64,000 nucleotides of DNA from a virus: IMG/VR virus record IMGVR_UViG_3300017725_001848; one strand, 5' to 3'. The position numbers were made by a program, and so were the translations under genes. Numbering within the stretch: the first letter of the stretch is position 1; each line of letters starts with the position of its first letter. Below are positions 2,906 to 21,207 of this stretch, piece by piece. Under the pieces are notes generated by a model, which was given only the letters and a program-made list of their open reading frames with translations, was not told where the DNA came from and ran no database searches.

Positions 2906-4000
2906 ATGTACAATTACAAATCCATAAACGAAGTTCACCTCGAAGTGACCCAACGGTGTAATGCATCATGCCCTATGTGTGATCGTAATGTTAATGGTGG
3001 AGAAGTAAATCCACACATCAAAGGCAAAGAAGCAGAACTTACATTAGATCATTGTATTGATATATTCCCACACGATTTTATATCTCAATTACACACGATG
3101 TATATGTGTGGTAACTTGGGCGATCCTATTAGTGCTAGAGATACATTAGAAATATTTCAATGGTTCCGTGATTGTAATCCTAATATGTGGTTAAGTATGA
3201 ATACTAATGCAGGTGCTAAGAAACCTGAATGGTGGGCAGAAGTAGCTAAAGTTATAGGCAAAAAAGGTTGTGTAATCTTTAGTGTGGATGGACTAGAAGA
3301 AACTAATCATTTATATAGACAAGGTGTTAAGTGGGAACACGTTGAACGTAATATGAAAGCATTTATTAATGCAGGTGGTAGAGCTAGATGGGATTATTTA
3401 ATATTTGAACATAGCGAATGTGATGTAGAACGTGCAGAACAGTTAGCCAAAGAATGGGGCGTTGAAAAGTTTATTAAAAAGAAAACAGGCAGGTTCATTA
3501 CTCAAGCAAGTAAACCAAAAGAAATGCATCAAGCACGTAATAGAAAAGGCGAACAGACAACAGTTTTAGCAAAGCCACAAAAGAAAGAACATCAAAATCT
3601 TGCTCTACTAAAACAAAAAGAGATAGAGAAAAGTTATGGTGGTATGATGAACTACTATAACCAAGCAAAAATAAAATGTAAAGTTGCTAGTGGAGATAAG
3701 AATAGTATCTTTGTCACGGCTGAAGGACTAATAATGCCTTGTTGTTGGACTGCAGGTCGTATGTACAAATGGTGGCATGAAGATCCTAAAGTAGAACAGA
3801 TATGGGATTTTATAGATAGAGCTGGTGGCAAGGATGGAATCAATGCAAAGATACACGGCATTGAAGGAGTATTTGGTAGTGGCATTATGAATGATATACA
3901 ACGTAGTTGGAAACTAGATAGTATTAAGAATGGTAAACTAGGAGTTTGCTCAATGAAGTGTGGCACAGAATTTGATCCATATGCGGAGCAATTTAAATAA
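2906..4000 (+). CDS. Radical SAM protein with C-terminal SPASM/twitch domain
   Basis: CNASCPMC, GNLGDP, FSVDG; C-terminal KC...PCCW...CSMKC. Confidence 0.9.
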   Translation: MYNYKSINEVHLEVTQRCNASCPMCDRNVNGGEVNPHIKGKEAELTLDHCIDIFPHDFISQLHTMYMCGNLGDPISARDTLEIFQWFRDCNPNMWLSMNTNAGAKKPEWWAEVAKVIGKKGCVIFSVDGLEETNHLYRQGVKWEHVERNMKAFINAGGRARWDYLIFEHSECDVERAEQLAKEWGVEKFIKKKTGRFITQASKPKEMHQARNRKGEQTTVLAKPQKKEHQNLALLKQKEIEKSYGGMMNYYNQAKIKCKVASGDKNSIFVTAEGLIMPCCWTAGRMYKWWHEDPKVEQIWDFIDRAGGKDGINAKIHGIEGVFGSGIMNDIQRSWKLDSIKNGKLGVCSMKCGTEFDPYAEQFK

Positions 4001-5142
4001 TGAATAGACCGTCTTGTATAGCACCTTGGGTAACAACATATGACCATACAGGTGGAGGCATACAAGTATGTTGTGAAGCAAATAAAATATTAATTCCTAA
4101 TAAAGAAAAAAGACATATGTCTTTTGAAGAACGCTTTTCTCATCCAGAAATGGAAAAGTTTAAAAAGATTATGTTGAATTCAGATACACTTCCTCCTATG
4201 TGTAATAATTGTGTATCACAAGAACAAAAAGGTTCTAAATCATTAAGGCAAGAATTCAATGAAGATTATTTAGATGATACATGGCAAGAAGATAAATTTG
4301 TATTAAGGTATTTAGATTATAGAGAAAGTAACTTGTGTAATTTTAGTTGCAAAATGTGTGGTAGTTATTTAAGTAGTACTCATGCAAAAATAGAAGGTAA
4401 GCATGGTAAGACTGGAGTACTTAATAATGTACATCAATTACAACAATGTTTAGATAATTTACATACTGTAGAACACGTATCATTTGCAGGCGGAGAGCCA
4501 TTAATGACTAAATCTTTCTTTGATATATGTAAAAAGATTAAACAATTAGGCAGAGAAAAAGACATCAGTATAAGCATGGTAACCAATGGAAGTGTACTGA
4601 ACAGGCACGGTGAGAATGTGTTAGAAACAATTGATGGATTTGCTGATGTAGGATTATCAATTAGTATAGATTGTGTAGGTGAACAACATGATTACTGGAG
4701 ACACAAAGGTACTTGGAATAAAGTTCTTTCTAACTTAAAAGAGTTTCATAAATTTAAATTATCTAATCCAAAGTCAGTACGTACAAAAATAAGAACAGCC
4801 ATAAGTTGGCCAAATGCATATGGTGCTAGATACGTGTTTGATGACTTAGCTCAATATGTTGATAAGATGAGACATAACTTTGTTACCAACCCATATGGTT
4901 TGAGTATTGATTGTTTACCAAAAGAACACCTAGACAAACTAATAGAGCATTGGAAAGATTACCCAGAAGTACAAGTAGCATTTAAAAATGTTGTACCAAA
5001 AGATGTATATCTATACCCAACAAAATTTATGCTTGAAAGACATGATAGATATCACGGTAACTCATTTGAAAAAGCATTTCCAGAGTTTGCCGACTTCTAT
5101 AAAAAAATAATACCAATAGAAGGCTTGACAAAGAACTTATAG
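4000..5142 (+). CDS. Radical SAM protein with N-terminal twitch-like Cys domain
   Basis: CIAPW..VCC..CNNC, then CNFSCKMC, FAGGEPL, VTNG, ISIDC. Confidence 0.9.
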   Translation: MNRPSCIAPWVTTYDHTGGGIQVCCEANKILIPNKEKRHMSFEERFSHPEMEKFKKIMLNSDTLPPMCNNCVSQEQKGSKSLRQEFNEDYLDDTWQEDKFVLRYLDYRESNLCNFSCKMCGSYLSSTHAKIEGKHGKTGVLNNVHQLQQCLDNLHTVEHVSFAGGEPLMTKSFFDICKKIKQLGREKDISISMVTNGSVLNRHGENVLETIDGFADVGLSISIDCVGEQHDYWRHKGTWNKVLSNLKEFHKFKLSNPKSVRTKIRTAISWPNAYGARYVFDDLAQYVDKMRHNFVTNPYGLSIDCLPKEHLDKLIEHWKDYPEVQVAFKNVVPKDVYLYPTKFMLERHDRYHGNSFEKAFPEFADFYKKIIPIEGLTKNL

Positions 5143-5187: not shown

Positions 5188-5727
5188 ATGACTACTCACG
5201 CGATGATAGACTTAGAAACATTGGGCACAGGTCCTGATTGTGTAGTTCTAACTATAGGAGGTGTAAAGTTCAATCCTAATGAAATAAGTGATACCCACAA
5301 TGAATTCTACTATCGATTTGATGTAGATGAACAATTAGCAAAAGGAAGAACAACATTAGACAGCACTATAGAGTGGTGGGGTAGGCAAGAAAAAAGTGTT
5401 AGAGATGAAGCACTTGGTGACGAAGGAAGAACGTCTGTACTAGAAGTCCTACAACATCTAAATAAATGGTGTGTTGGTGTTGATGTTATATGGTGTCAAG
5501 GACCTGCATTTGATATAGTTATACTAGAAAATATGTATCATCAGTACAAACATCATATACCTTGGGCATTTTGGAAAATAAGAGATAGTAGAACACTATT
5601 CAGTATTATGCCAAGTGATCCAAGAAAAGAAATAGAATTTGCGGCTCATAATGCTTTAGAAGACTGTAAAGTACAGGCATTATGTGTTCAAAAATCTATT
5701 GGTAAACTAAAACTTAAATTAAAATAG
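5188..5727 (+). CDS. DEDDh 3'-5' exonuclease/exoribonuclease (Rv2179c-like)
   Basis: MIDLETLG (ExoI), QGPAFD (ExoII), HNALED (ExoIII). Confidence 0.85.
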   Translation: MTTHAMIDLETLGTGPDCVVLTIGGVKFNPNEISDTHNEFYYRFDVDEQLAKGRTTLDSTIEWWGRQEKSVRDEALGDEGRTSVLEVLQHLNKWCVGVDVIWCQGPAFDIVILENMYHQYKHHIPWAFWKIRDSRTLFSIMPSDPRKEIEFAAHNALEDCKVQALCVQKSIGKLKLKLK

Positions 5728-5808: not shown

Positions 5809-6561
5809 ATGAGTCAGACTCGTGATATAGTGCAAGACATTGTTAAGCACACAGCCGGCTTAGGCTTTATTACTTCAGTGAAAGTAACAGGCACAGATGA
5901 ATCAACTACATTAGATGCTATGGATGCTGATCGTACAGTAATCTTACAAGCAACAATGCATAATGCAGTTGATGAATTTAACGGCGAATTTGGTCTTGGA
6001 AACCTTGGATTTTTATCTGGTGTTACAGGACTACCTAACTATCAAACAGATGATGCTACAGTTGATGTAGTAACTCGTGAACGTAATGGAGTAACAGTTC
6101 CAGATCACTTATTGTTTAAAGACAAAGAAGGCAATACAGATCAATACAGATTTATGAGTAAAGAAATTATTGAACAGACCTTACAAACTGTTAAGTTCAA
6201 AGGCGTTGAGTGGGATGTAACATTTGCACCTACAAAAGCTAAAGTAAGTGAGCTTCAAGCAGTTGCAGGAATCTATGGTGGAATTGAACCTAACTTTACT
6301 GTTAAAACAGACAACGGTGATTTAATTCTTACAGTAGGTGCCGCTGATGGATCTTTTACAGGTAAACGTACATTTGCAAACAATGTAAATGGAGAAATTA
6401 CAGAAGGTTATGCATGGCCATTAAACCAAGTGTTAGCAATTCTAAGACTAGGTATGAGTGGAACGTGTGTAATGAACATCAGTAAAAAAGGTGCATTAAT
6501 GATTTCAGTTGATTCAGGCTTAGGCAAATACGACTACATCTTACCAGCATTAACTGTATAA
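5809..6561 (+). CDS. Putative DNA polymerase sliding clamp (gp45/PCNA-like)
   Basis: 250 aa with an alternating beta-alpha-beta pattern in two similar halves, and a LDAMDADRTVIL segment like the PCNA N-terminal domain. No catalytic motifs. Inference. Confidence 0.55.
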   Translation: MSQTRDIVQDIVKHTAGLGFITSVKVTGTDESTTLDAMDADRTVILQATMHNAVDEFNGEFGLGNLGFLSGVTGLPNYQTDDATVDVVTRERNGVTVPDHLLFKDKEGNTDQYRFMSKEIIEQTLQTVKFKGVEWDVTFAPTKAKVSELQAVAGIYGGIEPNFTVKTDNGDLILTVGAADGSFTGKRTFANNVNGEITEGYAWPLNQVLAILRLGMSGTCVMNISKKGALMISVDSGLGKYDYILPALTV

Positions 6562-6587: not shown

Positions 6588-8096
6588 ATGGCAAGTAACA
6601 AAAACCTTACAGAAAGTAATAAAGACTACTCAGTATTCTTGCCGAGCATTAGTAGTTTTTATTCTAAGTTTATTAGACAAGCACAGAAAAGACCAGACTT
6701 TGTTAAACCAGAGAGAATGCCTAAGGGCTTTGAGTTTGGCATAGACGGCTTTGATTTTCTAAAACCTAAAGACAATTATTATAGTTACAAGTGGGGTTTA
6801 TACTCTGCAGGTCATGCCACTCGAGATCCAGTCAAAAGTGATGAGCAAGAACCTATGATTCAAAAACGTGATAGAGAACATAGTTTTATACTTGGTGATA
6901 GTGGTGGGTTTCAGATTGCTACAGGTGTAATCAAATGTGATTGGCCTAATTTTAAAACTGATGATGATCTACGTAAAACAATTTTAAATTGGTTAGAGCA
7001 TACTGCAGATTATAGTATGGTATTAGATATTCCTACATTAGCGGCGGCTCCACCATTGAATGCTAAAACAGGATTGAAAGATTGGGTTGATTGTTTAGAA
7101 TACACAATGTTTAATAACGATTACTTTGTACGTAATAGACAAGGTAAAACTAAATTCTTAAATGTATTACAAGGTAACAATGAGCAACAAGCTGATGATT
7201 GGTTTAGTGCAGTTAAACATTATCCATTTGAAGGTTGGGCAATGGCTGGTTACAATATGAAACAGTTGCATCTTGCTCTACGTAGACTTATTGTAATGCG
7301 AGATGAGAAACTGTTAGATCCAGGCAGAGATCTAATTCACTACTTGGGTACAAGTAAACTTAATTGGTCTTGTATCTTTACTGCAATACAACGTAACATT
7401 AGAGAAACTATTAATCCTAATATGATGGTTACGTATGATGCCGCTAGTCCTTTTATTACAACGGCTAAAGGACAAGCATACAGTCAACACGTTCATCGTA
7501 ACGATAAGTTTAGTTATGTAATGGAACAAGCAGTTGACGATAAGAAATTTCAACATAGCAATATACCGTTTCCATTTAACAGTCCTATTGGCGAACGTAT
7601 GACAATGGGTGACTTATGTTATATGGGTCCTGGTATGTTAAATAAAATTGGCAAAGAAGGCAAGACAAGTTGGGATAGTTTCTCATACTTCTTGTTAATG
7701 GCACACAATGTATATCAACACATTGAAGCTTGTCAACGTGCTAATACTCTAGCAGATATAGCCTGTACTAGATACAAGCCAAGTCACTTGGAATGGCGTA
7801 AAGTAAAACCTAAGCAAGAAGAATTTGACTTATGGGTTCCAAGAGATGTGATATATGTAACCGAGTTTATTGATAAGCTATTCAAAAGTGAAACACCAAT
7901 GCAATTATTAGAAGAAGCAGAATCAATGCTTACACACTTTAGTGGTATGAAGTCTATCAAAACTTCACAGAGTGCATTTGATAGTTTATTTGATTCTGGA
8001 GATGATTTACAAGACGTTGATGACGGCGAGTATACTAGTGAACAGGTAGAGGCCGCAGAAGACTTCTTGAATAACTTGGAGGAAACAAATGGCTGA
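6588..8096 (+). CDS. dpdA: Guanine transglycosylase family protein (DpdA-like; predicted to insert 7-deazaguanine into DNA)
   Basis: TGT motifs GDSGGFQ, VLDIPT, LNVLQG, IHYLGT, YDAASP. LDIPT and the DxAS motif match archaeal TGT/DpdA. No canonical CxCxxC Zn motif. folE, T-fold and queE genes are nearby. Confidence 0.75.
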   Translation: MASNKNLTESNKDYSVFLPSISSFYSKFIRQAQKRPDFVKPERMPKGFEFGIDGFDFLKPKDNYYSYKWGLYSAGHATRDPVKSDEQEPMIQKRDREHSFILGDSGGFQIATGVIKCDWPNFKTDDDLRKTILNWLEHTADYSMVLDIPTLAAAPPLNAKTGLKDWVDCLEYTMFNNDYFVRNRQGKTKFLNVLQGNNEQQADDWFSAVKHYPFEGWAMAGYNMKQLHLALRRLIVMRDEKLLDPGRDLIHYLGTSKLNWSCIFTAIQRNIRETINPNMMVTYDAASPFITTAKGQAYSQHVHRNDKFSYVMEQAVDDKKFQHSNIPFPFNSPIGERMTMGDLCYMGPGMLNKIGKEGKTSWDSFSYFLLMAHNVYQHIEACQRANTLADIACTRYKPSHLEWRKVKPKQEEFDLWVPRDVIYVTEFIDKLFKSETPMQLLEEAESMLTHFSGMKSIKTSQSAFDSLFDSGDDLQDVDDGEYTSEQVEAAEDFLNNLEETNG

Positions 8097-8268
8097 TAAA
8101 GCAACATATCTAAATACATTAAAAAAGAAACATAGAGAACTTGACAAAAAAATTAATACATTATATAATCAGTATGTTAATGAAGATGTATTAAAAGAGT
8201 TAAAGTATCAAAAACTTGATTTGAAAATGCAAATTACAAGATTAGAAACACAATTAGCAGAGGCTTAA
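8089..8268 (+). CDS. Small coiled-coil protein, DUF465/YdcH-like (not in ORF track)
   Basis: Own translation: MADKATYLNTLKKEHRELDKKINTLYNQYVNEDVLKELKYQKLDLKMQITRLETQLAEA*. HxxLDxxI...LKxxKLxLKxxI pattern; GGAGG RBS. Confidence 0.7.
   Translation: MADKATYLNTLKKKHRELDKKINTLYNQYVNEDVLKELKYQKLDLKMQITRLETQLAEA
8141..8169 (+). promoter_or_regulatory. Perfect sigma70 promoter TTGACA-N17-TATAAT inside the DUF465-like ORF
   Basis: -35 at 8141-8146, -10 at 8164-8169. Confidence 0.75.
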
Positions 8269-8271
8269 TAA

Positions 8272-8820
8272 ATGAAAAGAGACTATCACTCAAGCAACAA
8301 AAAAACTAACATACAAGAAGGTATAACATACTTTCAAGGTGTTGAAATTGAACATACACCTGCTTATGGCATGGATACTTTATTTGTTGTTGGTATGCAA
8401 GACCCTGAAGAAGTAAAAGGAATTGCAACAAGGAAAAACGTACAACATATATATCTAGGAGCAAATCAAAGTTTTGATTTATCTGATAACGAAGATATAT
8501 TAAAAGAGGAAGAAGAAGCTTGGGATAATTTAGTTAAGACACTTTGCGAAGAAGGTTTTTGGGTAACATTAGATTTTGAACATGAATATTTAGAATGGAT
8601 TCAAGAAGCAGGTTACACAGAACATAATAAATTTATACCAATGATTAGTGTTAAGGTTCCATACATTGAACAGTTGGGGTATAATGCTTGTATTAAAATT
8701 GACGATAAAGATTTTAATGCAACAAACAAAGGAGTATGGACTCACAAGGTTCATGACTTAATGGATCGCGATAGATTCACACAATGGGACCAATATAAAT
8801 CAGATAAGATAATTGAATAG
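8272..8820 (+). CDS. Hypothetical protein in the deazaguanine module
   Basis: Alpha/beta globular-looking sequence (EIEHTPAYGMDTLFVVG, HIYLGANQSF, WVTLD, IKIDD); no family recognised. Confidence 0.7.
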   Translation: MKRDYHSSNKKTNIQEGITYFQGVEIEHTPAYGMDTLFVVGMQDPEEVKGIATRKNVQHIYLGANQSFDLSDNEDILKEEEEAWDNLVKTLCEEGFWVTLDFEHEYLEWIQEAGYTEHNKFIPMISVKVPYIEQLGYNACIKIDDKDFNATNKGVWTHKVHDLMDRDRFTQWDQYKSDKIIE

Positions 8821-8829
8821 GAGAATCTT

Positions 8830-9027
8830 ATGACAAAGAAAATACGTTTAATGGATGAAGAAGCGAAAGCTACTGAACCAGGAACTGTAAATCCAGATGC
8901 ACCAGTTGATGAGGCTGTAGCAGATGATGTTTACAAAAAGCAATTAATGAAGTATCTAGAAGCAATTGACTGGAAACTTTGGGAAATGCTAAAATTAATG
9001 AAGGCAGACAGAGAAGAGAAAGAATAG
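8830..9027 (+). CDS. Hypothetical protein
   Basis: AGGAG RBS; short ORF within the operon. Confidence 0.6.
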   Translation: MTKKIRLMDEEAKATEPGTVNPDAPVDEAVADDVYKKQLMKYLEAIDWKLWEMLKLMKADREEKE

Positions 9028-9028
9028 T

Positions 9029-9430
9029 ATGGCACTAGATGTGACGACAAGGCAAATTTGGGTAACATTTCAAAAGGAAGGTGTACATTTGTATCCTGCC
9101 GCAAAAGATGACCCAGCATTAGCAACAGGTGATGAATATGATGTTAGCTTTTTAGGCTATGCACACAGACATATTTTTCACTTTAGAGTGGCAATTGATG
9201 TATTCCATGATGACAGAGATATTGAATTTATTCAATTCAAACGTTGGTTGGAATCATTATATGCTAAAGATGGAGTCCTAGAACTTAATCACAGAAGTTG
9301 TGAAATGATTGGTGAAGAATTAGCTAATCAGATTCATAATAGGTATCCAAATAGATCAATAACAATAAGTGTTGCAGAAGATAATGAAAATGGTGCAACA
9401 ATGACTTTTAACCCTGTAACTAAAGGATAG
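9029..9430 (+). CDS. T-fold protein, QueD/6-pyruvoyl-tetrahydropterin synthase paralog (DpdL-like)
   Basis: LGYAHRHIF replaces the QueD CxxxHGH motif; SCEMI and VAEDNENGA T-fold motifs. LxxxHRHxF is, from memory, the signature of the predicted CDG decarboxylase DpdL. Confidence 0.7.
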   Translation: MALDVTTRQIWVTFQKEGVHLYPAAKDDPALATGDEYDVSFLGYAHRHIFHFRVAIDVFHDDRDIEFIQFKRWLESLYAKDGVLELNHRSCEMIGEELANQIHNRYPNRSITISVAEDNENGATMTFNPVTKG

Positions 9431-9433
9431 ACA

Positions 9434-9856
9434 ATGTCTACAGATAATAAAAACGTTGAAGTGAAGAAAGACTTCGTAAAACGTGAACGCAAAGAAGAAA
9501 GTGTTGCGGTTCGTTACTTTAGAATGAGTGGGTTCTATAATATCAATGATATTAAATATGACCTACTTAAGATTATACAACCATATGATGGTTATATGTA
9601 TAATGAAAAAGAAACTAATCAATTGATTAGTGTATTCAACTCCTACTTGGGAGATCTACGAGAAGCTAGGAAGATTTTTAGTTTTGAAATTGTTCCTACT
9701 GAAAAAGAGAATGCAATTACATTTGACATTCAAATTAAAATGCAGAGAGATCGCAGTCCTAAAAAACTTAAGATCCACGTAGGTAAACTTTGGATTCAAC
9801 CAGAGCATGAAGCTTCAAATGATAATGAAGCGGAGGAGGCGAAAGCTGATGCGTAA
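9434..9856 (+). CDS. Hypothetical protein
   Basis: AAGGA RBS; intact ORF within the operon. Confidence 0.65.
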   Translation: MSTDNKNVEVKKDFVKRERKEESVAVRYFRMSGFYNINDIKYDLLKIIQPYDGYMYNEKETNQLISVFNSYLGDLREARKIFSFEIVPTEKENAITFDIQIKMQRDRSPKKLKIHVGKLWIQPEHEASNDNEAEEAKADA

Positions 9857-11066
9857 ATTATTTTATATGGGTTTAGAACCGTATGAAGGAAGATACACTC
9901 TACAATTACAAGAGTGGAGTGAAAGAGTATTTAAAAAGAACAATATAGATTATGTAATTGTTCCTGGTACTACTATTGATAATACAAAGTCTATTAGTGT
10001 TGGTCAAGTGTTAGATGCACACGGTAGAAGTTATTTTGGTATGAGCCAGCTTATGAATCTAGTACAGATGATGCGTAATGGAGAAGTGACAGCAGAAGAT
10101 GCAGTTTTCTTTGAAGATATGTTTCAACCAGGTATTGAAAGTTTGCCATATATTATGTGTCAAATTCCAGAAGCACAACGACCTAAGATCTTCTTACGTT
10201 GTTTAGCACAGGCTGTTGATCCAGATGACTTTGTTCATGTATGGGGTATGGGCAAATGGATGGGCTTGTATGAAAAAATGTGTAATGAAATTCCTAACGT
10301 TCATATACTAGCAACAAATGAAGAAATGGTTGCTCATATGAGAATTGCAGGTTGGGAGGCACCAATTTATAATATATCAGGTTTAAGTTTTGGTAAAGAA
10401 GAAGTACTAGAAAGAGTAAACAATAAAGTTAAGCCATGGGCAGAACGTAGTAATAGAGTTGTATTTGCGGCAAGGTTTGATCAAGAGAAACAACCAGATT
10501 TCTTTATGGATGTCATTGAAATGGTCCATGAAAAAACTAGAAACTTTGATAGAGAAACGTTAACAGATAGAATTGATCCTGTAGAATTTGCAGTATTAAG
10601 TGGAGGTCCATTAAGAAGCAACAATGAAAAGTATTTGAAACGTGCTTTAGAAATGGAAGAAAAAGGTCAATTAAAAATATATAAAGACTTGCAAAAAAAC
10701 GATTATTATAATATAGTAAATGATAGTAAAGTTTTATTTAATTGTGCATTACAAGATTGGGTAAGCAATACAGTAAGTGAAGCAGACACATTAGGTTGTA
10801 ACGTAGTGTATCCTGCTTATAGAAGCTTTCCTGAAACGTTTGCAAATGATTATAGTAGGCTTTATACTCCTTGGAGTAAAGAAGATGCAGTTGCTAAGAT
10901 TATGGCTGGATTAGAAAAGCCAAGTGAGGATATGGGTAAATTAAGTGATTGGACTAATGGAACTATTGACCGTATGATTCATATTATGCAAGGTGATTAT
11001 AGAGCTAATAAGTGGTTACGTAGTGGAAATAGATATAGAGATCACGTAGCGGAGGCAAAGTATTAA
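9849..11066 (+). CDS. GT-B fold glycosyltransferase (GT4-like)
   Basis: VVFAARFDQEKQP and the C-terminal donor-binding motif QDWVSNTVSEADTLGCNVV. Start moved from the track's 9807 to ATG 9849. Confidence 0.7.
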   Translation: MRKLFYMGLEPYEGRYTLQLQEWSERVFKKNNIDYVIVPGTTIDNTKSISVGQVLDAHGRSYFGMSQLMNLVQMMRNGEVTAEDAVFFEDMFQPGIESLPYIMCQIPEAQRPKIFLRCLAQAVDPDDFVHVWGMGKWMGLYEKMCNEIPNVHILATNEEMVAHMRIAGWEAPIYNISGLSFGKEEVLERVNNKVKPWAERSNRVVFAARFDQEKQPDFFMDVIEMVHEKTRNFDRETLTDRIDPVEFAVLSGGPLRSNNEKYLKRALEMEEKGQLKIYKDLQKNDYYNIVNDSKVLFNCALQDWVSNTVSEADTLGCNVVYPAYRSFPETFANDYSRLYTPWSKEDAVAKIMAGLEKPSEDMGKLSDWTNGTIDRMIHIMQGDYRANKWLRSGNRYRDHVAEAKY

Positions 11067-12062
11067 ATGGCAAAAGTATTAGTAACAGGAGCAAATGGTT
11101 ATATAGGTGCTCAAACTTGTAAACAATTAACAAAAGATAATCATCACGTAGTAGCAGTTGATCGTAATCCTATAAGACATGAATACTATAATGATTTCTT
11201 TGAAGGTAGTTATACAGATCCTGCTATTCTAGCATTTTTAAAAGGTGTAGATTGTGTAGTACATATTGGTGCAACAAGTTTAGTTGGACCTAGTGTACTT
11301 GATCCTGCATCTTATTATTTTAATAATGTAACTGGTACTCTAGTATTACTAGATGCTTGTAAAACTGTAGGTATTAACAGATTTGTATTTGCAAGTAGTG
11401 CGGCAGTTTATGGAGAACCAGAAGAAGAATATTGTACAGAAACAGATGAAGTAAAACCAGTTAATCCATATGGCTGGAGTAAACGTATGACAGAAGTTAT
11501 GTTAAAAGACTTTGCTAGAGCTTATAGTTTATCTAGTGTAAGTTTACGTTTCTTTAATGTAGCTGGTGCAGATAGTGATTGTGAGTTAGGACAAGAAAAA
11601 GATGGAACTCATATAATTGCTAAACTTATGGAAATGACTATGGACGGCAAAGATTTTACACTTAATGGTGATGACTTTAAAACACCAGATGGAACTTGCA
11701 TAAGAGATTATGTTCATGTAGAAGATGTTGCTAGTGGAATAGTAAAAGCAGTAGAATTTACAAAGAGCAATATAGGTGCTCATGTATTTAATTTAGGTGA
11801 TGGTAAAGGTTACAGTAATAAAGAAATTGTAAAAGCAGTAGAAGATAATACTCCTTTAAAACCTAACGTAAAGTTTGGACCAGCAAGAGCAGGAGACCCT
11901 GCCAAGCTAGTAGCAAATGATTTTATTACCAGTAGTGTGTTAGGTTGGAAACCTGAATATGATTTAAATCATATTGTAAAGACTGCATACGATTGGTATC
12001 AAAAAAAAGAGGTCAAGCACTCAGCAGACATCCTCGTCTTTAACTCGGAGAAAAAGAAATGA
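11067..12062 (+). CDS. galE: UDP-glucose 4-epimerase
   Basis: TGANGYIG, FASSAAVYG, YGWSK, LRFFNVAG, DGTCIRDYVHV, RAGDP. Confidence 0.9.
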   Translation: MAKVLVTGANGYIGAQTCKQLTKDNHHVVAVDRNPIRHEYYNDFFEGSYTDPAILAFLKGVDCVVHIGATSLVGPSVLDPASYYFNNVTGTLVLLDACKTVGINRFVFASSAAVYGEPEEEYCTETDEVKPVNPYGWSKRMTEVMLKDFARAYSLSSVSLRFFNVAGADSDCELGQEKDGTHIIAKLMEMTMDGKDFTLNGDDFKTPDGTCIRDYVHVEDVASGIVKAVEFTKSNIGAHVFNLGDGKGYSNKEIVKAVEDNTPLKPNVKFGPARAGDPAKLVANDFITSSVLGWKPEYDLNHIVKTAYDWYQKKEVKHSADILVFNSEKKK

Positions 12063-12748
12063 CAATAAGAGACACAATTAAAAAACGACTAGAAGAAAAC
12101 AATGTTAGATATTGGGCTAATGATAATATTAGCAAATACATTGATGCAGATGAAAAACAACAATTAATTGATGAAGCAGTACCTGCTTTTGAAAATGTAC
12201 TACAAAGTTTATTGATAGATACAAAAACAGATCCTAACAGTATGGATACCGCAAGGCGTATGGCTAAGATGTATATCAATGAGATTATGTCTGGCAGATA
12301 TAATGAAATGCCTAATCCTAGTGCTTTTCCTAACTACATTGAAAATGGTTATGAAGGTATGCTAGTTGTGAGAAGTGAACTTACAAGTCTATGTTCGCAT
12401 CACCATCAAACAGTAAAAGGTGTAGCATATATTGGTATCCTTGCAGGACCTAAACTATTAGGGTTATCTAAATATACACGTATCGCTCAATGGTGTGCAA
12501 GACGTGGAACACTACAAGAAGATCTAAATGTTATGATTGCAAACACTATTCAGGAAACAACAGGTAGTGATGATGTAGGTGTTTATGTACAAGCAACACA
12601 TGGTTGTTGTGAGAACAGAGGTATCCAAGCACATAGCAGTTTAACACAAACTACAGTATTACGTGGTGTATTCAAAACAGATCCTAACGTTAAAAAAGAA
12701 TTTATTGATAACGTAAAATTACAACAACAATTTGCACAAGGAAAATAG
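12059..12748 (+). CDS. folE: GTP cyclohydrolase I
   Basis: SLCSHHH, LGLSKYTR, LQEDL, HGCCENRG. Confidence 0.92.
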   Translation: MTIRDTIKKRLEENNVRYWANDNISKYIDADEKQQLIDEAVPAFENVLQSLLIDTKTDPNSMDTARRMAKMYINEIMSGRYNEMPNPSAFPNYIENGYEGMLVVRSELTSLCSHHHQTVKGVAYIGILAGPKLLGLSKYTRIAQWCARRGTLQEDLNVMIANTIQETTGSDDVGVYVQATHGCCENRGIQAHSSLTQTTVLRGVFKTDPNVKKEFIDNVKLQQQFAQGK

Positions 12749-12752
12749 ACTC

Positions 12753-13235
12753 ATGATTGATAAGGTTTATTATACTTGGAAAGATATTGAGCATATGATT
12801 GTTACTATTAACAATCTTATGTTTGCAGATAATTGGCGACCTGATTATATTGTAGGCATGACCCGTGGTGGTTTAGTACCGGCAGTTATGATGTCTAATT
12901 CAACAGGCATAAAAATGTATGCTCTTGATGTTAGATTCAGAGATGTTACTAAAGACAACAATCCTGAAAGCAATAAGAAAATGGCCGCAGATGCTTATGC
13001 TGGCAAAAACATTCTAATACTTGATGATATAAATGATAGTGGTCGCACATTTCAATGGATAAAAGATGATTGGAATATTAAGTGGGGTACTAACGTAAGA
13101 ACTGCCGCTCTAGTTGATAATGGATCTAGCAATTTTGGAGAAGTAGATTACACAGCCTTGGAAATTAACAAGATGGAAAAAGACGTCTGGGTTGTATTTC
13201 CTTGGGAAGGAGAAAGGGACTATGGCAACATATGA
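12753..13235 (+). CDS. Type I phosphoribosyltransferase (xanthine/guanine PRTase-like)
   Basis: IVGMTRGGLVPA, PRPP motif ILILDDINDSGRT, C-terminal WVVFPWE as in Gpt. Confidence 0.85.
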   Translation: MIDKVYYTWKDIEHMIVTINNLMFADNWRPDYIVGMTRGGLVPAVMMSNSTGIKMYALDVRFRDVTKDNNPESNKKMAADAYAGKNILILDDINDSGRTFQWIKDDWNIKWGTNVRTAALVDNGSSNFGEVDYTALEINKMEKDVWVVFPWEGERDYGNI

Positions 13236-13870: not shown

Positions 13871-16558
13871 ATGAAAAAGCTAATTGCAGTTGCATTACTA
13901 GTAGTAGGATTAACTACTTCAGCAAATGCGTCATCTTTTAAAAGTTATTACGATTATGCATCAGGCCTAAATAGCGGATTGCAGATCAGTTTTTCCACTT
14001 CAATGATTAAGGCCTATGAACGAAGTAACAAAACATATGGCAATTTAATTACAAAATACGATCATATGTTTGGAAAATATTCTTGGTTCCAAAATATGAA
14101 ATCAAGGTACAAATTTCAACAAGCAGAAATAGTTAAGTATCAAGCCTTAATTAATAATAAAGAAGCATTAGTTACTCTAGTTAAAACTGAAACTAAAGTT
14201 ACTAATGGTGTTATTGTTACTAAAGGTGATACTATAGTTGCAAGTGAAAGTTCAGCAGTAGTAGAAGAAAGAACAGGTAATACTGTTAAAGAGTATGCAG
14301 TTGTTACTAAGATATATTCTACTCCTGTTAAAAAACAACACTGGCAAAATACACAAACTATTAAACATTACAGTGACGGATCAATGGGTTCTACTAGTGA
14401 TGTTAAAACAATCAAAATTGACAATACTACTGAAACTGAAACAAAAGTTGAAAAAGAACTTATCAGAGAATATGCAGTAGTAATAGAACAACCAATAGAA
14501 GATACAGTAGTTGTTACTCTAACTGAAGCTGAATATCTTGCTAGAGATGATGTATCTTTATATGATACACAAACTTACAAAGATGCAGTTTGGAATATGA
14601 ATAGCAGAATTAACGAATGGTATACTACTGAAATTCTTTCTAAGAACTATGGTAACCATTTAGAAGTAATTGGTGCACCGGCGGCGTGGAGTAGAGGATA
14701 TACAGGTAAAGATAGTATTATTGCTATTCTTGATACTGGTATTGATTTAGACCATAGCGAGTTTGAAAATAAAATTATAGATGCAAAATGTTTTACAAGT
14801 ACTTGTAAAGCAGGACACGAAACTATACAAGATGAAAATAGATACTCGCACGGAACACACGTTGCAGGTATTGCGGCCGCTAATTTAGATGGCAATGGTA
14901 CTACAGGTGTTGCTCCTGATGCAAGTTTATTAATTGCTAAAACAGCCTGGAATTTTGGTATGTTTGATTTTAGTACTGCCGACGAAGCTATTGCTTGGTC
15001 AGTACAAAATGGTGCTGATGTAATCAATATAAGTGCAAACTATAACTTTGATAGAACTTATATGAACAGTACTACAGAAGTATCGCCAGGTATGTATTTT
15101 GCAAATGATACACGAGGTAGAAATGGTATTACATATGACAAGTATGGATATGCGGCCTTATACAGTAGTGATATATATTACAAAAATATTGTAGAAGCTA
15201 TGAAAGGACATGAAGCAGTTCTTGTATTAGCGGCTGGTAATCAAAATGCTGACTATGCCGGACAGCCTAGTAAACTTGCATTTGAAGATGGTGTAGGTGA
15301 CAGGGTAATGATTGTTGGTTCATGGGATACACGAACTAATAAAATGGCACATGGTAGTAACAGAGCAGGTACTATATGTTATGACTTTAACTCAATTACA
15401 AATACTTGTAATTCAGATGATAAAGTTAGTGATCACTATTTGATCGCTCCTGGTAGATATATTGCGGCTCCTGATGCTAATGGTGAATATAGAACTAATA
15501 GTGGTACATCGATGGCGGCTCCTCAGGTTAGTGGTGCAGTTGCTATCATACATCAAATGTGGCCACATATGAAAGGTTCTAATATTAAGAAACTATTGCT
15601 AACGACAGCAGATAAAACAATAGCAAACTATGATGTAAATGTTCACGGACAAGGATTGTTAGATCTAGATGCGGCAACACTTCCACAAGGTGTTGTAGGA
15701 ATTCCTACAACAGGTAGAGCAGATGGAAATACAGTAAGTGTTGATGGAACTATTGCATTTAGTGGCGGTGCTAATATTTCAGCTTTTAATGAAATTATGG
15801 TATTAGACGAGTACGATAGAGATTATTATTTCAACGGAAATAATGTCGTACAAGTAAATGATACTAGAACTACTAGTGCTATATTGAATACTAAAGCAGG
15901 ATTTAACACAAACTATTATGCAGGTTATACTGGCGGACACTTTTTACCAGTTGCACATAATACAATGTTAAGTGTAAATGAAAATGCTAGTCAATATGGA
16001 ATTGCTACAAACATAAATAAGTTTACAATAGGTTATATTACAGAAGATAAAAGCTTCTTAGGTAATATTGCTGATAGTCCTCTTATGAGAGTTAACGGTT
16101 CACAAACTACATACTTAGGTTATAACAATAATCTTGATGTCGGAAATGGCGTTAACGTGTTTGGTAGTGCAACAGTAGGTTTCACTAATCTAAACGTTGA
16201 TAAAAGCTCAATGCTTAAAAGTGCAGATATGATGTTATCAAATAGTGCTACAATAGGTGTTAAACGTACAATAGACACCCATAGCTTCGGGTTTACAACA
16301 AGTATGCCAGTTGCTATAGTAGATGGCGATGCCAAGTTTAATATGCCTTCTACAGTAAGTGCTAATGGTGATATTGAGAATAGCGACATAAACAGTTCGT
16401 TAAAATCACAAAATAGAGAGATAGACTTTGGTGTGTTCTACAATGTAGGACTTACTGAAAATAGTACAATCTCAAGTTTTGCAGAAATGAGAACAAACTA
16501 TGCAGGTACCGAAGACGATACTGTTGAACTAGGTATTAACTATAGGATTACATTTTAA
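13871..16558 (+). CDS. Secreted S8 subtilisin-like serine protease with C-terminal outer-membrane beta-barrel-like (autotransporter-like) domain
   Basis: Signal peptide MKKLIAVALLVVGLTTSANA; triad ILDTGID / SHGTHVAG / SGTSMAAP; amphipathic beta-rich C-terminus ending in Phe (INYRITF). Confidence 0.85.
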   Translation: MKKLIAVALLVVGLTTSANASSFKSYYDYASGLNSGLQISFSTSMIKAYERSNKTYGNLITKYDHMFGKYSWFQNMKSRYKFQQAEIVKYQALINNKEALVTLVKTETKVTNGVIVTKGDTIVASESSAVVEERTGNTVKEYAVVTKIYSTPVKKQHWQNTQTIKHYSDGSMGSTSDVKTIKIDNTTETETKVEKELIREYAVVIEQPIEDTVVVTLTEAEYLARDDVSLYDTQTYKDAVWNMNSRINEWYTTEILSKNYGNHLEVIGAPAAWSRGYTGKDSIIAILDTGIDLDHSEFENKIIDAKCFTSTCKAGHETIQDENRYSHGTHVAGIAAANLDGNGTTGVAPDASLLIAKTAWNFGMFDFSTADEAIAWSVQNGADVINISANYNFDRTYMNSTTEVSPGMYFANDTRGRNGITYDKYGYAALYSSDIYYKNIVEAMKGHEAVLVLAAGNQNADYAGQPSKLAFEDGVGDRVMIVGSWDTRTNKMAHGSNRAGTICYDFNSITNTCNSDDKVSDHYLIAPGRYIAAPDANGEYRTNSGTSMAAPQVSGAVAIIHQMWPHMKGSNIKKLLLTTADKTIANYDVNVHGQGLLDLDAATLPQGVVGIPTTGRADGNTVSVDGTIAFSGGANISAFNEIMVLDEYDRDYYFNGNNVVQVNDTRTTSAILNTKAGFNTNYYAGYTGGHFLPVAHNTMLSVNENASQYGIATNINKFTIGYITEDKSFLGNIADSPLMRVNGSQTTYLGYNNNLDVGNGVNVFGSATVGFTNLNVDKSSMLKSADMMLSNSATIGVKRTIDTHSFGFTTSMPVAIVDGDAKFNMPSTVSANGDIENSDINSSLKSQNREIDFGVFYNVGLTENSTISSFAEMRTNYAGTEDDTVELGINYRITF

Positions 16559-20310: not shown

Positions 20311-21207
20311 ATGGAAGAGAAAAAGTATTACTACTCAGAAATATTTCATTCTATACAAGGTGAAGGACATTATACAGGAGTACCAACTGCCTGGATAAGA
20401 TTCTTTTTATGTAACTTACAATGTAGTGGGTTTGGGCAGATTGATCCTACAAATCCTGAAACATATGATTTACCATTTGAAGACTTTGATGTATCAAGTG
20501 TAAAGAGAGTTGAAGACTTGCCTGTATGGGAAAAAGGTTGTGATAGTAGTTACACGTGGGCCAAGAAGTTTAAAAGTCTTATGGGTCAAGAAACTCCTTC
20601 TGTATTAGCAAATAAAATTGTAGACATAATGAAAAATGAAAGTAACCCTGATGGATTGTTTTTACATCCTGTTACAGGGCAAAGACAGCATTTATGTATT
20701 ACAGGCGGAGAGCCATTAATGGCAACAGGGCAAATGGCTACAGTAGGAATATATGAAGAACTTGAAAGACAAAATAACTTACCAGAGTCAATGACATTTG
20801 AAACAAATGGTACACAAAAACTCAGAGAACCATTTATGGAATGGGTTAAGAGAATTGATACAGAAATATTTTTTAGTTGTAGTCCTAAACTATTTACAGT
20901 ATCAGGAGAAGCTCCTGGTAAAGCAATTAAGCCTGAAGTAGTTGCAGAGTACAGAAAACTATCTAGTAAAGGGCAATTAAAATTTGTAGTAGGTCCTAAA
21001 GATAGAGAGTGGGATGAGATGGAATCAGTAATTAAACAGTTTAAAGATGCAGGTGTTGACTGGCCCGTATGGGTTATGCCAACAGGTGCTAGAGAAGAAG
21101 AGCAGACTGCAGGTGCAGGTAAAGTTGCAGAAAAAGCATTTAAACGTGGGTACAATGTTGCGGCAAGAGTACACGTTTACTTGTTTGGTAATGCTATAGG
21201 AACATAA
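20311..21207 (+). CDS. queE: 7-carboxy-7-deazaguanine synthase (radical SAM) with an insertion in the cluster-binding loop
   Basis: EIFHSIQGEG, WIRFFLCNLQC..(38 aa)..CDS, ITGGEP, FETNG, SCSPK, LKFVV, RVHVYL. Confidence 0.88.
   Translation: MEEKKYYYSEIFHSIQGEGHYTGVPTAWIRFFLCNLQCSGFGQIDPTNPETYDLPFEDFDVSSVKRVEDLPVWEKGCDSSYTWAKKFKSLMGQETPSVLANKIVDIMKNESNPDGLFLHPVTGQRQHLCITGGEPLMATGQMATVGIYEELERQNNLPESMTFETNGTQKLREPFMEWVKRIDTEIFFSCSPKLFTVSGEAPGKAIKPEVVAEYRKLSSKGQLKFVVGPKDREWDEMESVIKQFKDAGVDWPVWVMPTGAREEEQTAGAGKVAEKAFKRGYNVAARVHVYLFGNAIGT

Follow-up and report, generated by a model that had tools for sequence, protein, structure and literature searches.

The DNA of Cellulophaga phage phiST has been proven chemically to carry deoxy-7-deazaguanosine (dDG) (PMC10516641). 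A gene set of FolE, QueD and QueE without QueC is tied to dDG and to DpdL, a protein defined by the signature LxxxHRHxF and proposed to act as a 7-carboxy-7-deazaguanine (CDG) decarboxylase (Hutinet/Cui et al., NAR 2023, PMC10516641). In addition, a deazaguanine synthesis and incorporation system was listed in phage PA5oct by Iyer et al. 2021. From the restriction pattern of PA5oct DNA, its authors inferred that G is modified where it stands in a GA and/or GG context, and no chemical identity of this modification is published in the literature searched. Here we analyzed a 64,000-nucleotide stretch of viral DNA (hereafter the window; minus strand of G000:C1:30890-94889, within the 99.5-kb IMG/VR virus record IMGVR_UViG_3300017725_001848), in which positions 6588-13235 hold a module that combines such deazaguanine genes with a glycosyltransferase (GT). 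Overall, the module is best explained, with a probability of about 0.5, as a phage G-to-7-deazaguanine exchange system with one added glycosylation step.

In the literature searched, sugars in phage DNA are carried by pyrimidines, namely 5-hydroxymethylcytosine (5hmC), a thymine derivative and, reportedly, 5-hydroxycytosine. Known phage 7-deazaguanine modifications are limited to small C7 substituents. In vertebrate tRNA, queuosine is glycosylated (QTMAN/GTDC1, QTGAL), which places a sugar on a 7-deazaguanine derivative in nucleic acid; the acceptor of QTMAN, however, is the queuosine cyclopentenediol, which the pathway in the window cannot make. Some phage DNA glycosyltransferases need a co-encoded epimerase and act on 5hmC (bioRxiv 10.1101/2023.12.21.572611). 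As in these GT-epimerase pairs and around the T4 alpha/beta-glucosyltransferases, the GT of the window lies in a base-modification cluster and has an epimerase partner that could supply nucleotide-sugar. Unlike them, it is GT4-type and its partner pathway makes a purine analogue, whereas they act on a pyrimidine hydroxymethyl and their GT-B members are T4 beta-GT-like. In huimycin biosynthesis, the GT4-type enzyme HuiG transfers N-acetylglucosamine (GlcNAc) from uridine diphosphate (UDP)-GlcNAc to a free base derived from 7-deazaguanine, and in tubercidin biosynthesis a phosphoribosyltransferase (PRTase) and a decarboxylase process CDG. The huimycin, dapiramicin and tubercidin pathways resemble the window in pairing a GT4-type GT with a 7-deazapurine and in their PRTase and decarboxylase, but they are actinobacterial secondary-metabolite pathways, defined by the absence of DpdA and of tRNA-guanine transglycosylase (TGT).

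Like phiST, the virus of the window has FolE, QueD and QueE without QueC, an LxxxHRHxF DpdL, and a distant TGT-fold enzyme missed by Pfam. Unlike the window, phiST has no GT, GalE or PRTase, and its DpdA3, of 259 aa, shows only remote profile similarity (hhalign, 79.5%) to the 502-aa enzyme found here. The PA5oct genes gp168-gp167-gp166 are more similar in content, encoding a homologue of that enzyme (38.5% identity), a GT and DpdL (58%), with a clamp gene upstream and QueE downstream; this cluster differs in lacking GalE and PRTase and in having a GT of a shorter clade (~350 aa). We read the locus as a known kind of system plus an extra glycosylation step, the latter well supported as a prediction from genomic linkage.

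The module consists of ten co-directional open reading frames (ORFs) with spacing or overlap of at most ~10 bases, except for a 50-base overlap at the nominal GT start. The ORF map thus confirms the order given in an earlier note made from the letters alone, which had seen no large gaps and had placed the GT and GalE between a T-fold gene and folE. For comparison, we used metagenome relatives (designated L with a number) and a sample of 80 IMG/VR loci that were retrieved with a DpdL alignment and scanned using hidden Markov models (HMMs) built for this analysis. The genes of the module, and the QueE gene downstream of it, are as follows.

6588..8096, + strand: divergent TGT-fold DpdA-like base-exchange enzyme, 502 aa, from predicted fold and Asp motifs
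8089..8268, + strand: DUF465 small coiled-coil protein (PF04325, 27.4 bits against a cut-off of 25)
8272..8820, + strand: conserved 182-aa protein, homologous to ACP17 gp122 (BLASTP 32% identity, HMM E 2e-26)
8830..9027, + strand: small conserved 65-aa protein, with homologues in the corresponding position of L010, L011 and L013 and no family match
9029..9430, + strand: DpdL, a T-fold QueD paralogue and proposed CDG decarboxylase, from signature and homology
9434..9856, + strand: conserved 140-aa protein between DpdL and GT, with homologues in L010, L011, L013 and 31 of the 80 IMG/VR loci and no family match
9849..11066 (ORF opens at 9807; likely start M15), + strand: GT4-type GT-B glycosyltransferase, from AlphaFold2 (AF2) fold and profiles
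11067..12062, + strand: GalE, UDP-hexose 4-epimerase (TIGR01179, 304.8 bits against a cut-off of 262.3; PF01370, E 2.4e-54)
12059..12748, + strand: FolE, GTP cyclohydrolase I (PF01227, 131 bits; phrog_2197, E 5e-43)
12732..13235, + strand: xanthine/guanine-type phosphoribosyltransferase (PF00156, 48.8 bits)
20311..21207, + strand: divergent QueE, 7-carboxy-7-deazaguanine synthase, from NCBIfam and homology

Profile searches agreed with the earlier calls of DUF465, GT, GalE, FolE and PRTase. The T-fold call could be made more specific. Residues 42-50 of this protein read LGYAHRHIF, which fits the published LxxxHRHxF that replaces the CxxxHGH of QueD, and the protein aligns with phiST CGPG_00067 over 89% of the query at 32% identity (tblastn, E 2e-7); signature and homology together identify the gene as DpdL. 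It is also 54% identical to ACP17 gp125 (tblastn) and matches phrog_17812 (E 5.5e-33), and the same signature was found in relatives L023, L106 and L108. In the alignment, DpdL keeps the metal-binding histidines and the anchoring Glu, roles that we assign from general knowledge of T-fold enzymes.

The remaining synthesis genes are scattered over the record. QueE at 20311-21207 is matched weakly, in its N-terminal part, by each of the five NCBIfam QueE models (E 2e-10 to 7e-5), and shares 35% identity with the QueE annotated in BUCT-ZZ01 and 27% with its ACP17 counterpart. The sole PF01242 (PTPS/QueD) match in the record is at G000:C1:9934-10314, outside the window, and no QueC or QueF was found in the whole 99.5 kb, so that the earlier statement that queC, queF and a canonical queD are missing from the window holds. 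The gene set of the record matches the FolE-QueD-QueE-without-QueC pattern, with DpdL and a DpdA-like gene present. As a separate observation, the region around QueD (L009; G000:C1:8434-11814, outside the window) has the canonical QueD gene beside genes for a 308-aa radical S-adenosylmethionine (radical-SAM) protein (MoaA/TrsS-like, not QueE), a 297-aa unknown protein and a SufT-like Fe-S assembly protein.

The DpdA-like enzyme was invisible to sequence searches. It had no match in Pfam, NCBIfam or PHROGs and nothing relevant in PDB, either by phmmer or with a profile of 25 homologues. The Pfam TGT family PF01702 was found neither by hmmscan of the protein nor by a six-frame search of the whole record; PF01702 likewise misses the published DpdA3 proteins and the X1 'queuine tRNA-ribosyltransferase'. 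The earlier TGT/DpdA-like call was borne out by the fold. The AF2 model, built with the 25 homologues, has a predicted TM score (pTM) of 0.82, and its best 50 Foldseek matches in PDB are all TGT or ArcTGT (E from 2e-6, probability 1.0, TM by target ~0.5). Further, D104 (in GDSGGFQ, a motif consistent with that call), D147 (VLDIPT) and D284 (YDAASP) are invariant across the 25 homologues, and hhalign against DpdA3-type proteins (ACP17, BUCT-ZZ01, X1 and phiST; E 1.5e-5, 174 columns at the probability given above) pairs these motifs with DSGGLQ, FDEIP and YDSTTH. We take the three residues to be the equivalents of Z. mobilis D102, D156 and D280. As for the canonical TGT zinc motif CxCxxC...H, the sequence holds no CxCxxC, and C169 is the sole invariant Cys in the family alignment.

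BLASTP of the enzyme against phiST CGPG_00065 and ACP17 gp123 gave no significant match, and its relative PA5oct gp168 matches ACP17 gp123 marginally (BLASTP, E 0.005). The enzyme groups with PA5oct gp168, Vibrio phage 2.275.O gp468 and Phosso gp440, and these proteins are best treated as a subfamily apart from DpdA3. The Vibrio phage 2.275.O homologue lies two genes from QueF, a YhhQ-type transporter, QueC, an amidotransferase and FolE, and that of PA5oct has DpdL and QueE as neighbours. By its modeled fold, the 502-aa protein is a member of the TGT/DpdA superfamily; exchange of G in DNA is predicted from the linkage of its family to FolE/QueD/QueE/QueF/QueC genes and from the restriction resistance of PA5oct. 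Taken together, the DpdL signature, the TGT fold and the FolE/QueD/QueE set bear out the view of the earlier note that this is a 7-deazaguanine DNA-modification module, and we consider this very likely.

Homologues of the GT begin at its residue 15, which makes M15 (window 9849) the probable start; with this start, the 50-base overlap shrinks to 8. It matches Glycos_transf_1 (PF00534) marginally, at 26.9 bits against a gathering cut-off of 26.4, and its relatives carry PF00534 and PF13692. The AF2 model (pLDDT 93, pTM 0.91) has the two Rossmann domains of a GT-B fold, and its top Foldseek matches are BshA, MshA, PimA, glycogen synthase and SenB (E 2e-11 to 1e-8). A profile of 38 family members matches GT4 chains in PDB via the donor-binding domain, where the motif aligns to GRLDHNKNP of WlaC. 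Across these 38 sequences, which reach down to 22% identity, R209, E213 and K214 (RxDxEKQP) are invariant, and D303 and E311 (D-x7-E) are kept in at least 90%. Since the donor-site Arg, Lys and Glu are conserved, the GT looks catalytically competent and active. Genomic linkage predicts a deazaguanine as its acceptor.

The GT family comprises 820 clusters at 50% identity. A long clade (~390-405 aa) includes the GT of the window, that of L013 and that of Synechococcus phage BUCT-ZZ01 (69% identity), and a short clade (~340-355 aa) includes those of L011, PA5oct (gp167), ACP17 (gp124) and Phosso (annotated 'glycosyltransferase'). QTMAN was considered as an identity for the GT and rejected: an ESM Atlas resemblance (0.97) was the only sign of it, with no PF12038 QTMAN_N match at E up to 10 and no QTMAN among the best 30 Swiss-Prot fold matches.

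The linkage of the GT to deazaguanine genes was examined in relatives. The GT gene lies beside DpdL in six groups of cultured phages (X1, ACP17, PA5oct, BUCT-ZZ01, Phosso and BCSR5), and the gene order differs between them; the 199-kb X1-like Xanthomonas phage BUDD was left out of the group count.

ACP17 (Busanvirus): QueD-FolE-gp122-DpdA3-GT-DpdL-QueE
Xanthomonas phage X1: FolE-...-GT-DpdA-DpdL-QueE
PA5oct (Wroclawvirus): clamp-DpdA-GT-DpdL-...-QueE
BUCT-ZZ01 (Synechococcus phage, Kyanoviridae): QueE-XGPRT-x-QueD-FolE-x-DpdA3-DpdL-GT-exonuclease
Phosso: DpdL-GT with 18 bases between, DpdA elsewhere
Burkholderia phage BCSR5 and Xanthomonas phage BUDD: DpdL and GT at most 3 kb apart

The proximity is kept despite the shuffled order and with two DpdA subfamilies as partners, which argues for functional coupling rather than inherited synteny. 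Among the 62 informative IMG/VR loci, defined by at least 4 kb of sequence downstream of DpdL, 58 have the GT. We also followed GT representatives of 31-36% identity whose DNA could be retrieved, and all five lie within ~5 kb of a QueD, QueE, FolE, DpdL or DpdA-like gene. Four of the five are at most 3 kb from QueD/QueE; DpdL accompanies four, with the HRH signature in three of those, and the fifth (L022) has only a divergent DpdL-like ORF and a window-type DpdA. The linkage that the earlier note had suggested checking is therefore kept in relatives as far as the GT is concerned, and we think it rather probable that the GT acts within the deazaguanine module. Two IMG/VR loci (L084 and L103) have window-type DpdA, DpdL and GalE with no GT within 8 kb; as natural variants that lack the GT, they lend themselves to comparison.

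Alternatively, the GT and GalE could serve a separate function and be merely syntenic with the DNA-modification genes, acting on host surface polysaccharide, on a phage protein or on hydroxymethyl-pyrimidines. GT4 enzymes mostly make glycolipids and polysaccharides, family members are labelled 'glycosyltransferase involved in cell wall biosynthesis' in their sources, and clusters of surface-glycan GTs are frequent in jumbo phages and cyanophages. Also, the family member of Xanthomonas phage PhiXhv-15 does not adjoin DpdL. Against this stand the repeated adjacency to DpdL/DpdA in unrelated phages with shuffled order and the five of five distant representatives near deazaguanine genes. Moreover, seven of the 12 invariant GT columns fall in the N-terminal (acceptor) domain in a family whose members are only ~30% identical, which suggests a single conserved acceptor across the family. 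A glycosylated hydroxymethyl-pyrimidine in particular was set aside, as the 99-kb record has neither a ThyA-like hydroxymethylase nor TET; this absence is weak evidence because the record is only ~28% complete. On balance, we regard a separate function as unlikely.

The PhiXhv-15 locus (L024, 105658-108892) is of a different make-up, with the GT family member beside GlmS and an LmbE-type (BshB-like) deacetylase and no DpdL nearby. This set looks like the GlcNAc transfer followed by deacetylation of bacillithiol/mycothiol synthesis.

The coupling of the GT to DpdL is not reciprocal. Cellulophaga phiST carries DpdL and DpdA3 with no GT, and the GT search gave no match in several further DpdL phages. 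As phiST makes plain dDG without a GT, the GT is an optional extension of DpdL systems that is not required for dDG. This bears on a second alternative, in which the DNA holds plain 7-deazaguanine or carboxy-deazaguanine and the GT-like protein aids its making or insertion with no sugar left in DNA, perhaps through a transient glycosylated or activated intermediate processed by DpdL/DpdA. In its favour, dDG is the sole chemically shown product of a DpdL phage, vibriophage VP1 is fully dDG-substituted, and 7-deazaguanine is without an obvious O-acceptor. Further, DpdL and DpdA alone failed to reconstitute the modification, and the authors proposed a need for further enzymes (PMC10516641). A GT is unnecessary for dDG in phiST, however, and the dedicated enzymes of sugar-nucleotide supply that adjoin the GT (GalE in the window; GlmS and the deacetylase in PhiXhv-15) point to stoichiometric sugar use. 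We judge a plain base with a GT in an auxiliary role to be improbable.

GalE follows the GT in 33 of the 58 GT-bearing IMG/VR loci, more often in the long GT clade (18/23) than in the short one (15/35). The PRTase is present in 41 of the 80 loci and has a homologue inside the deazaguanine cluster of BUCT-ZZ01. Its best NCBIfam match, the xanthine PRTase model NF006613 (48.2 bits), is below the cut-off of 138, and only the general domain PF00156 passes.

The PRTase is reminiscent of the tubercidin and toyocamycin pathways, and together with the fold of the GT it raises a third alternative. The module could yield a free glycosylated pterin or 7-deazapurine metabolite, comparable to huimycin or biopterin glucoside, that is active in the infected cell and not put into DNA. 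HuiG, also of GT4 type, glycosylates a free 7-deazapurine; a pterin glucosyltransferase (5ze7) is at rank 25 of the GT fold matches; and the GT is acidic. Yet a TGT-fold enzyme is nearly always beside the GT (window-type DpdA in 69 of the 80 loci, DpdA3 in ACP17 and BUCT-ZZ01), the cluster is located among replication genes (clamp, polymerase, primase), and PA5oct DNA resists restriction at G-containing sites. A free metabolite therefore seems decidedly improbable to us.

We return to the exchange system with an added glycosylation step, for which the following route may be proposed. At the level of gene families, FolE of the module, QueD (encoded beyond the window on this contig) and QueE (20311) would convert GTP to CDG. 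DpdL would act on this 2-amino-4-oxo-pyrimidine ligand and trim or alter it, in the published proposal to 7-deazaguanine, and the 502-aa TGT-fold enzyme would then swap G in DNA for the resulting base. The two later steps are more conjectural: the retaining GT4-type GT would move a sugar from a UDP-sugar onto the deazaguanine, either as a free base before insertion or in DNA after insertion, and GalE would in this phage deliver UDP-Gal or UDP-GalNAc as donor. The PRTase would probably recycle guanine freed by the exchange, or may alternatively form a deazaguanine nucleotide as in tubercidin biosynthesis. The expected end product would be a hexosyl- or N-acetylhexosaminyl (HexNAc)-7-deazaguanine in virion DNA that blocks restriction.

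Several points weigh against this route. 7-Deazaguanine has no hydroxyl; the sugar might be attached at C7, at the N2 amine, which is the site in huimycin, or, should DpdL differ from the proposal, at a carboxyl. In line with the earlier note, which was aware of no such base confirmed chemically in phage DNA, the literature searched has no report of a sugar on any deazaguanine in DNA. DpdL activity was never demonstrated, and Hutinet et al. failed to reconstitute dDG (PMC10516641). The GT family is acidic (pI, the isoelectric point, ~5-6), the nearest GT folds take small-molecule or lipid acceptors, and the best 50 fold matches of the GT include no T4 DNA glucosyltransferase. The acidity and the small-molecule acceptors of its fold neighbours lean slightly toward the free base over DNA as substrate. 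In addition, the IMG/VR loci come from related phages, so much of the synteny in the 58 of 62 loci is inherited and not independent, and the record itself is rated ~28% complete.

GalE is missing at 25 of the 58 GT-bearing IMG/VR loci, and no GalE was found in the four cultured-phage clusters examined by annotation (ACP17, BUCT-ZZ01, PA5oct and X1; BUDD and BCSR5 are known from tblastn coordinates only, and the Phosso DpdL-GT locus is outside this check). The GalE gene proposed by the earlier note is real in the window, passing TIGR01179, but many relatives with the GT lack GalE, so that a sugar of the galactose type is not general among them. Weighing these points, we hold only tentatively, and at somewhat less than even odds, that a sugar-bearing deazaguanine is present in the virion DNA, made by a widespread DpdL-coupled phage GT4 family.

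The smaller genes of the module are conserved to different degrees. The DUF465 gene is also found 3' of the DpdA-like gene in relatives L010-L013. The 182-aa gene lies between DpdA and DpdL in 43 of the 80 IMG/VR loci; its product has no family match and no informative ESM Atlas match, and ACP17 gp122 is its sole homologue among the cultured-phage clusters. Thus, of the earlier description of the 182-, 65- and 140-aa proteins as orphans, the lack of family matches stands, but all three are conserved in relatives, and the first has the ACP17 homologue.

The record has ~33% G+C and almost all of its genes on one strand. Relatives were found on contigs from marine metagenomes, the largest of 344 kb, so the window is a fragment of a marine jumbo phage. 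The following genes lie upstream of the module.

2906-4000 and 4000-5142: two twitch-type radical-SAM genes, upstream of the clamp gene
5188-5727: Rv2179c-like 3'-5' exonuclease
5809..6561, + strand: sliding-clamp-like protein (ESM Atlas feature matches to PCNA and gp45 clamp clusters, 0.93-0.98)

The clamp-like gene is present in 67 of the 80 IMG/VR loci, and in PA5oct (gp170), Vibrio phage 2.275.O (gp465) and metagenome relatives it precedes the DpdA-like gene; mass spectrometry led to the annotation of PA5oct gp170 as a structural protein. A homologue of the exonuclease (32% identity) is directly 3' of the GT in BUCT-ZZ01, and may be a tie to the module. The twitch gene at 2906-4000 has homologues at the same place in relatives (76-80% identity), and for that at 4000-5142 only a remote match was found there (20% identity, E ~1e-5). 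The 99.5-kb record has 18 radical-SAM family matches, 15 of them exceeding the Pfam cut-off, and many form a tandem run at window ~38000-64000. In L013 (75% identical), an N6/N4 DNA methyltransferase gene (L013 9002-9907) is inserted just upstream of the DpdA-like gene. On the 3' side of the module, an 895-aa S8 subtilase is encoded at 13871-16558; L013 has the same gene, and the more distant L010-L012 do not.

If the glycosylation step is real, it would bear on an earlier failure in this field. ACP17 gp124, encoded between the DpdA3 and DpdL genes, belongs to the GT family, and the main text of the DpdL paper (PMC10516641) nowhere mentions this GT; the pairing of the GT gene with these genes would account for the failed dDG reconstitution from ACP17 genes. 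The product would also be a candidate for the G modification of PA5oct, a therapeutic-candidate phage. Cultured hosts and phages exist, which makes the hypothesis directly testable. More broadly, deazaguanine carrying a sugar would represent a new class of DNA hypermodification, with relevance to restriction, CRISPR and glycosylase-based defences, to phage sequencing and to tools for site-specific DNA labelling. The GT family and the DpdA-like family each comprise over 7,800 clusters at the 90% identity level, from marine and other metagenomes, and from this abundance the modification could be common in nature. Marine jumbo phages would have it in abundance, and the cultured phages PA5oct, ACP17, Xanthomonas X1 and Synechococcus BUCT-ZZ01 would be among those that carry it.

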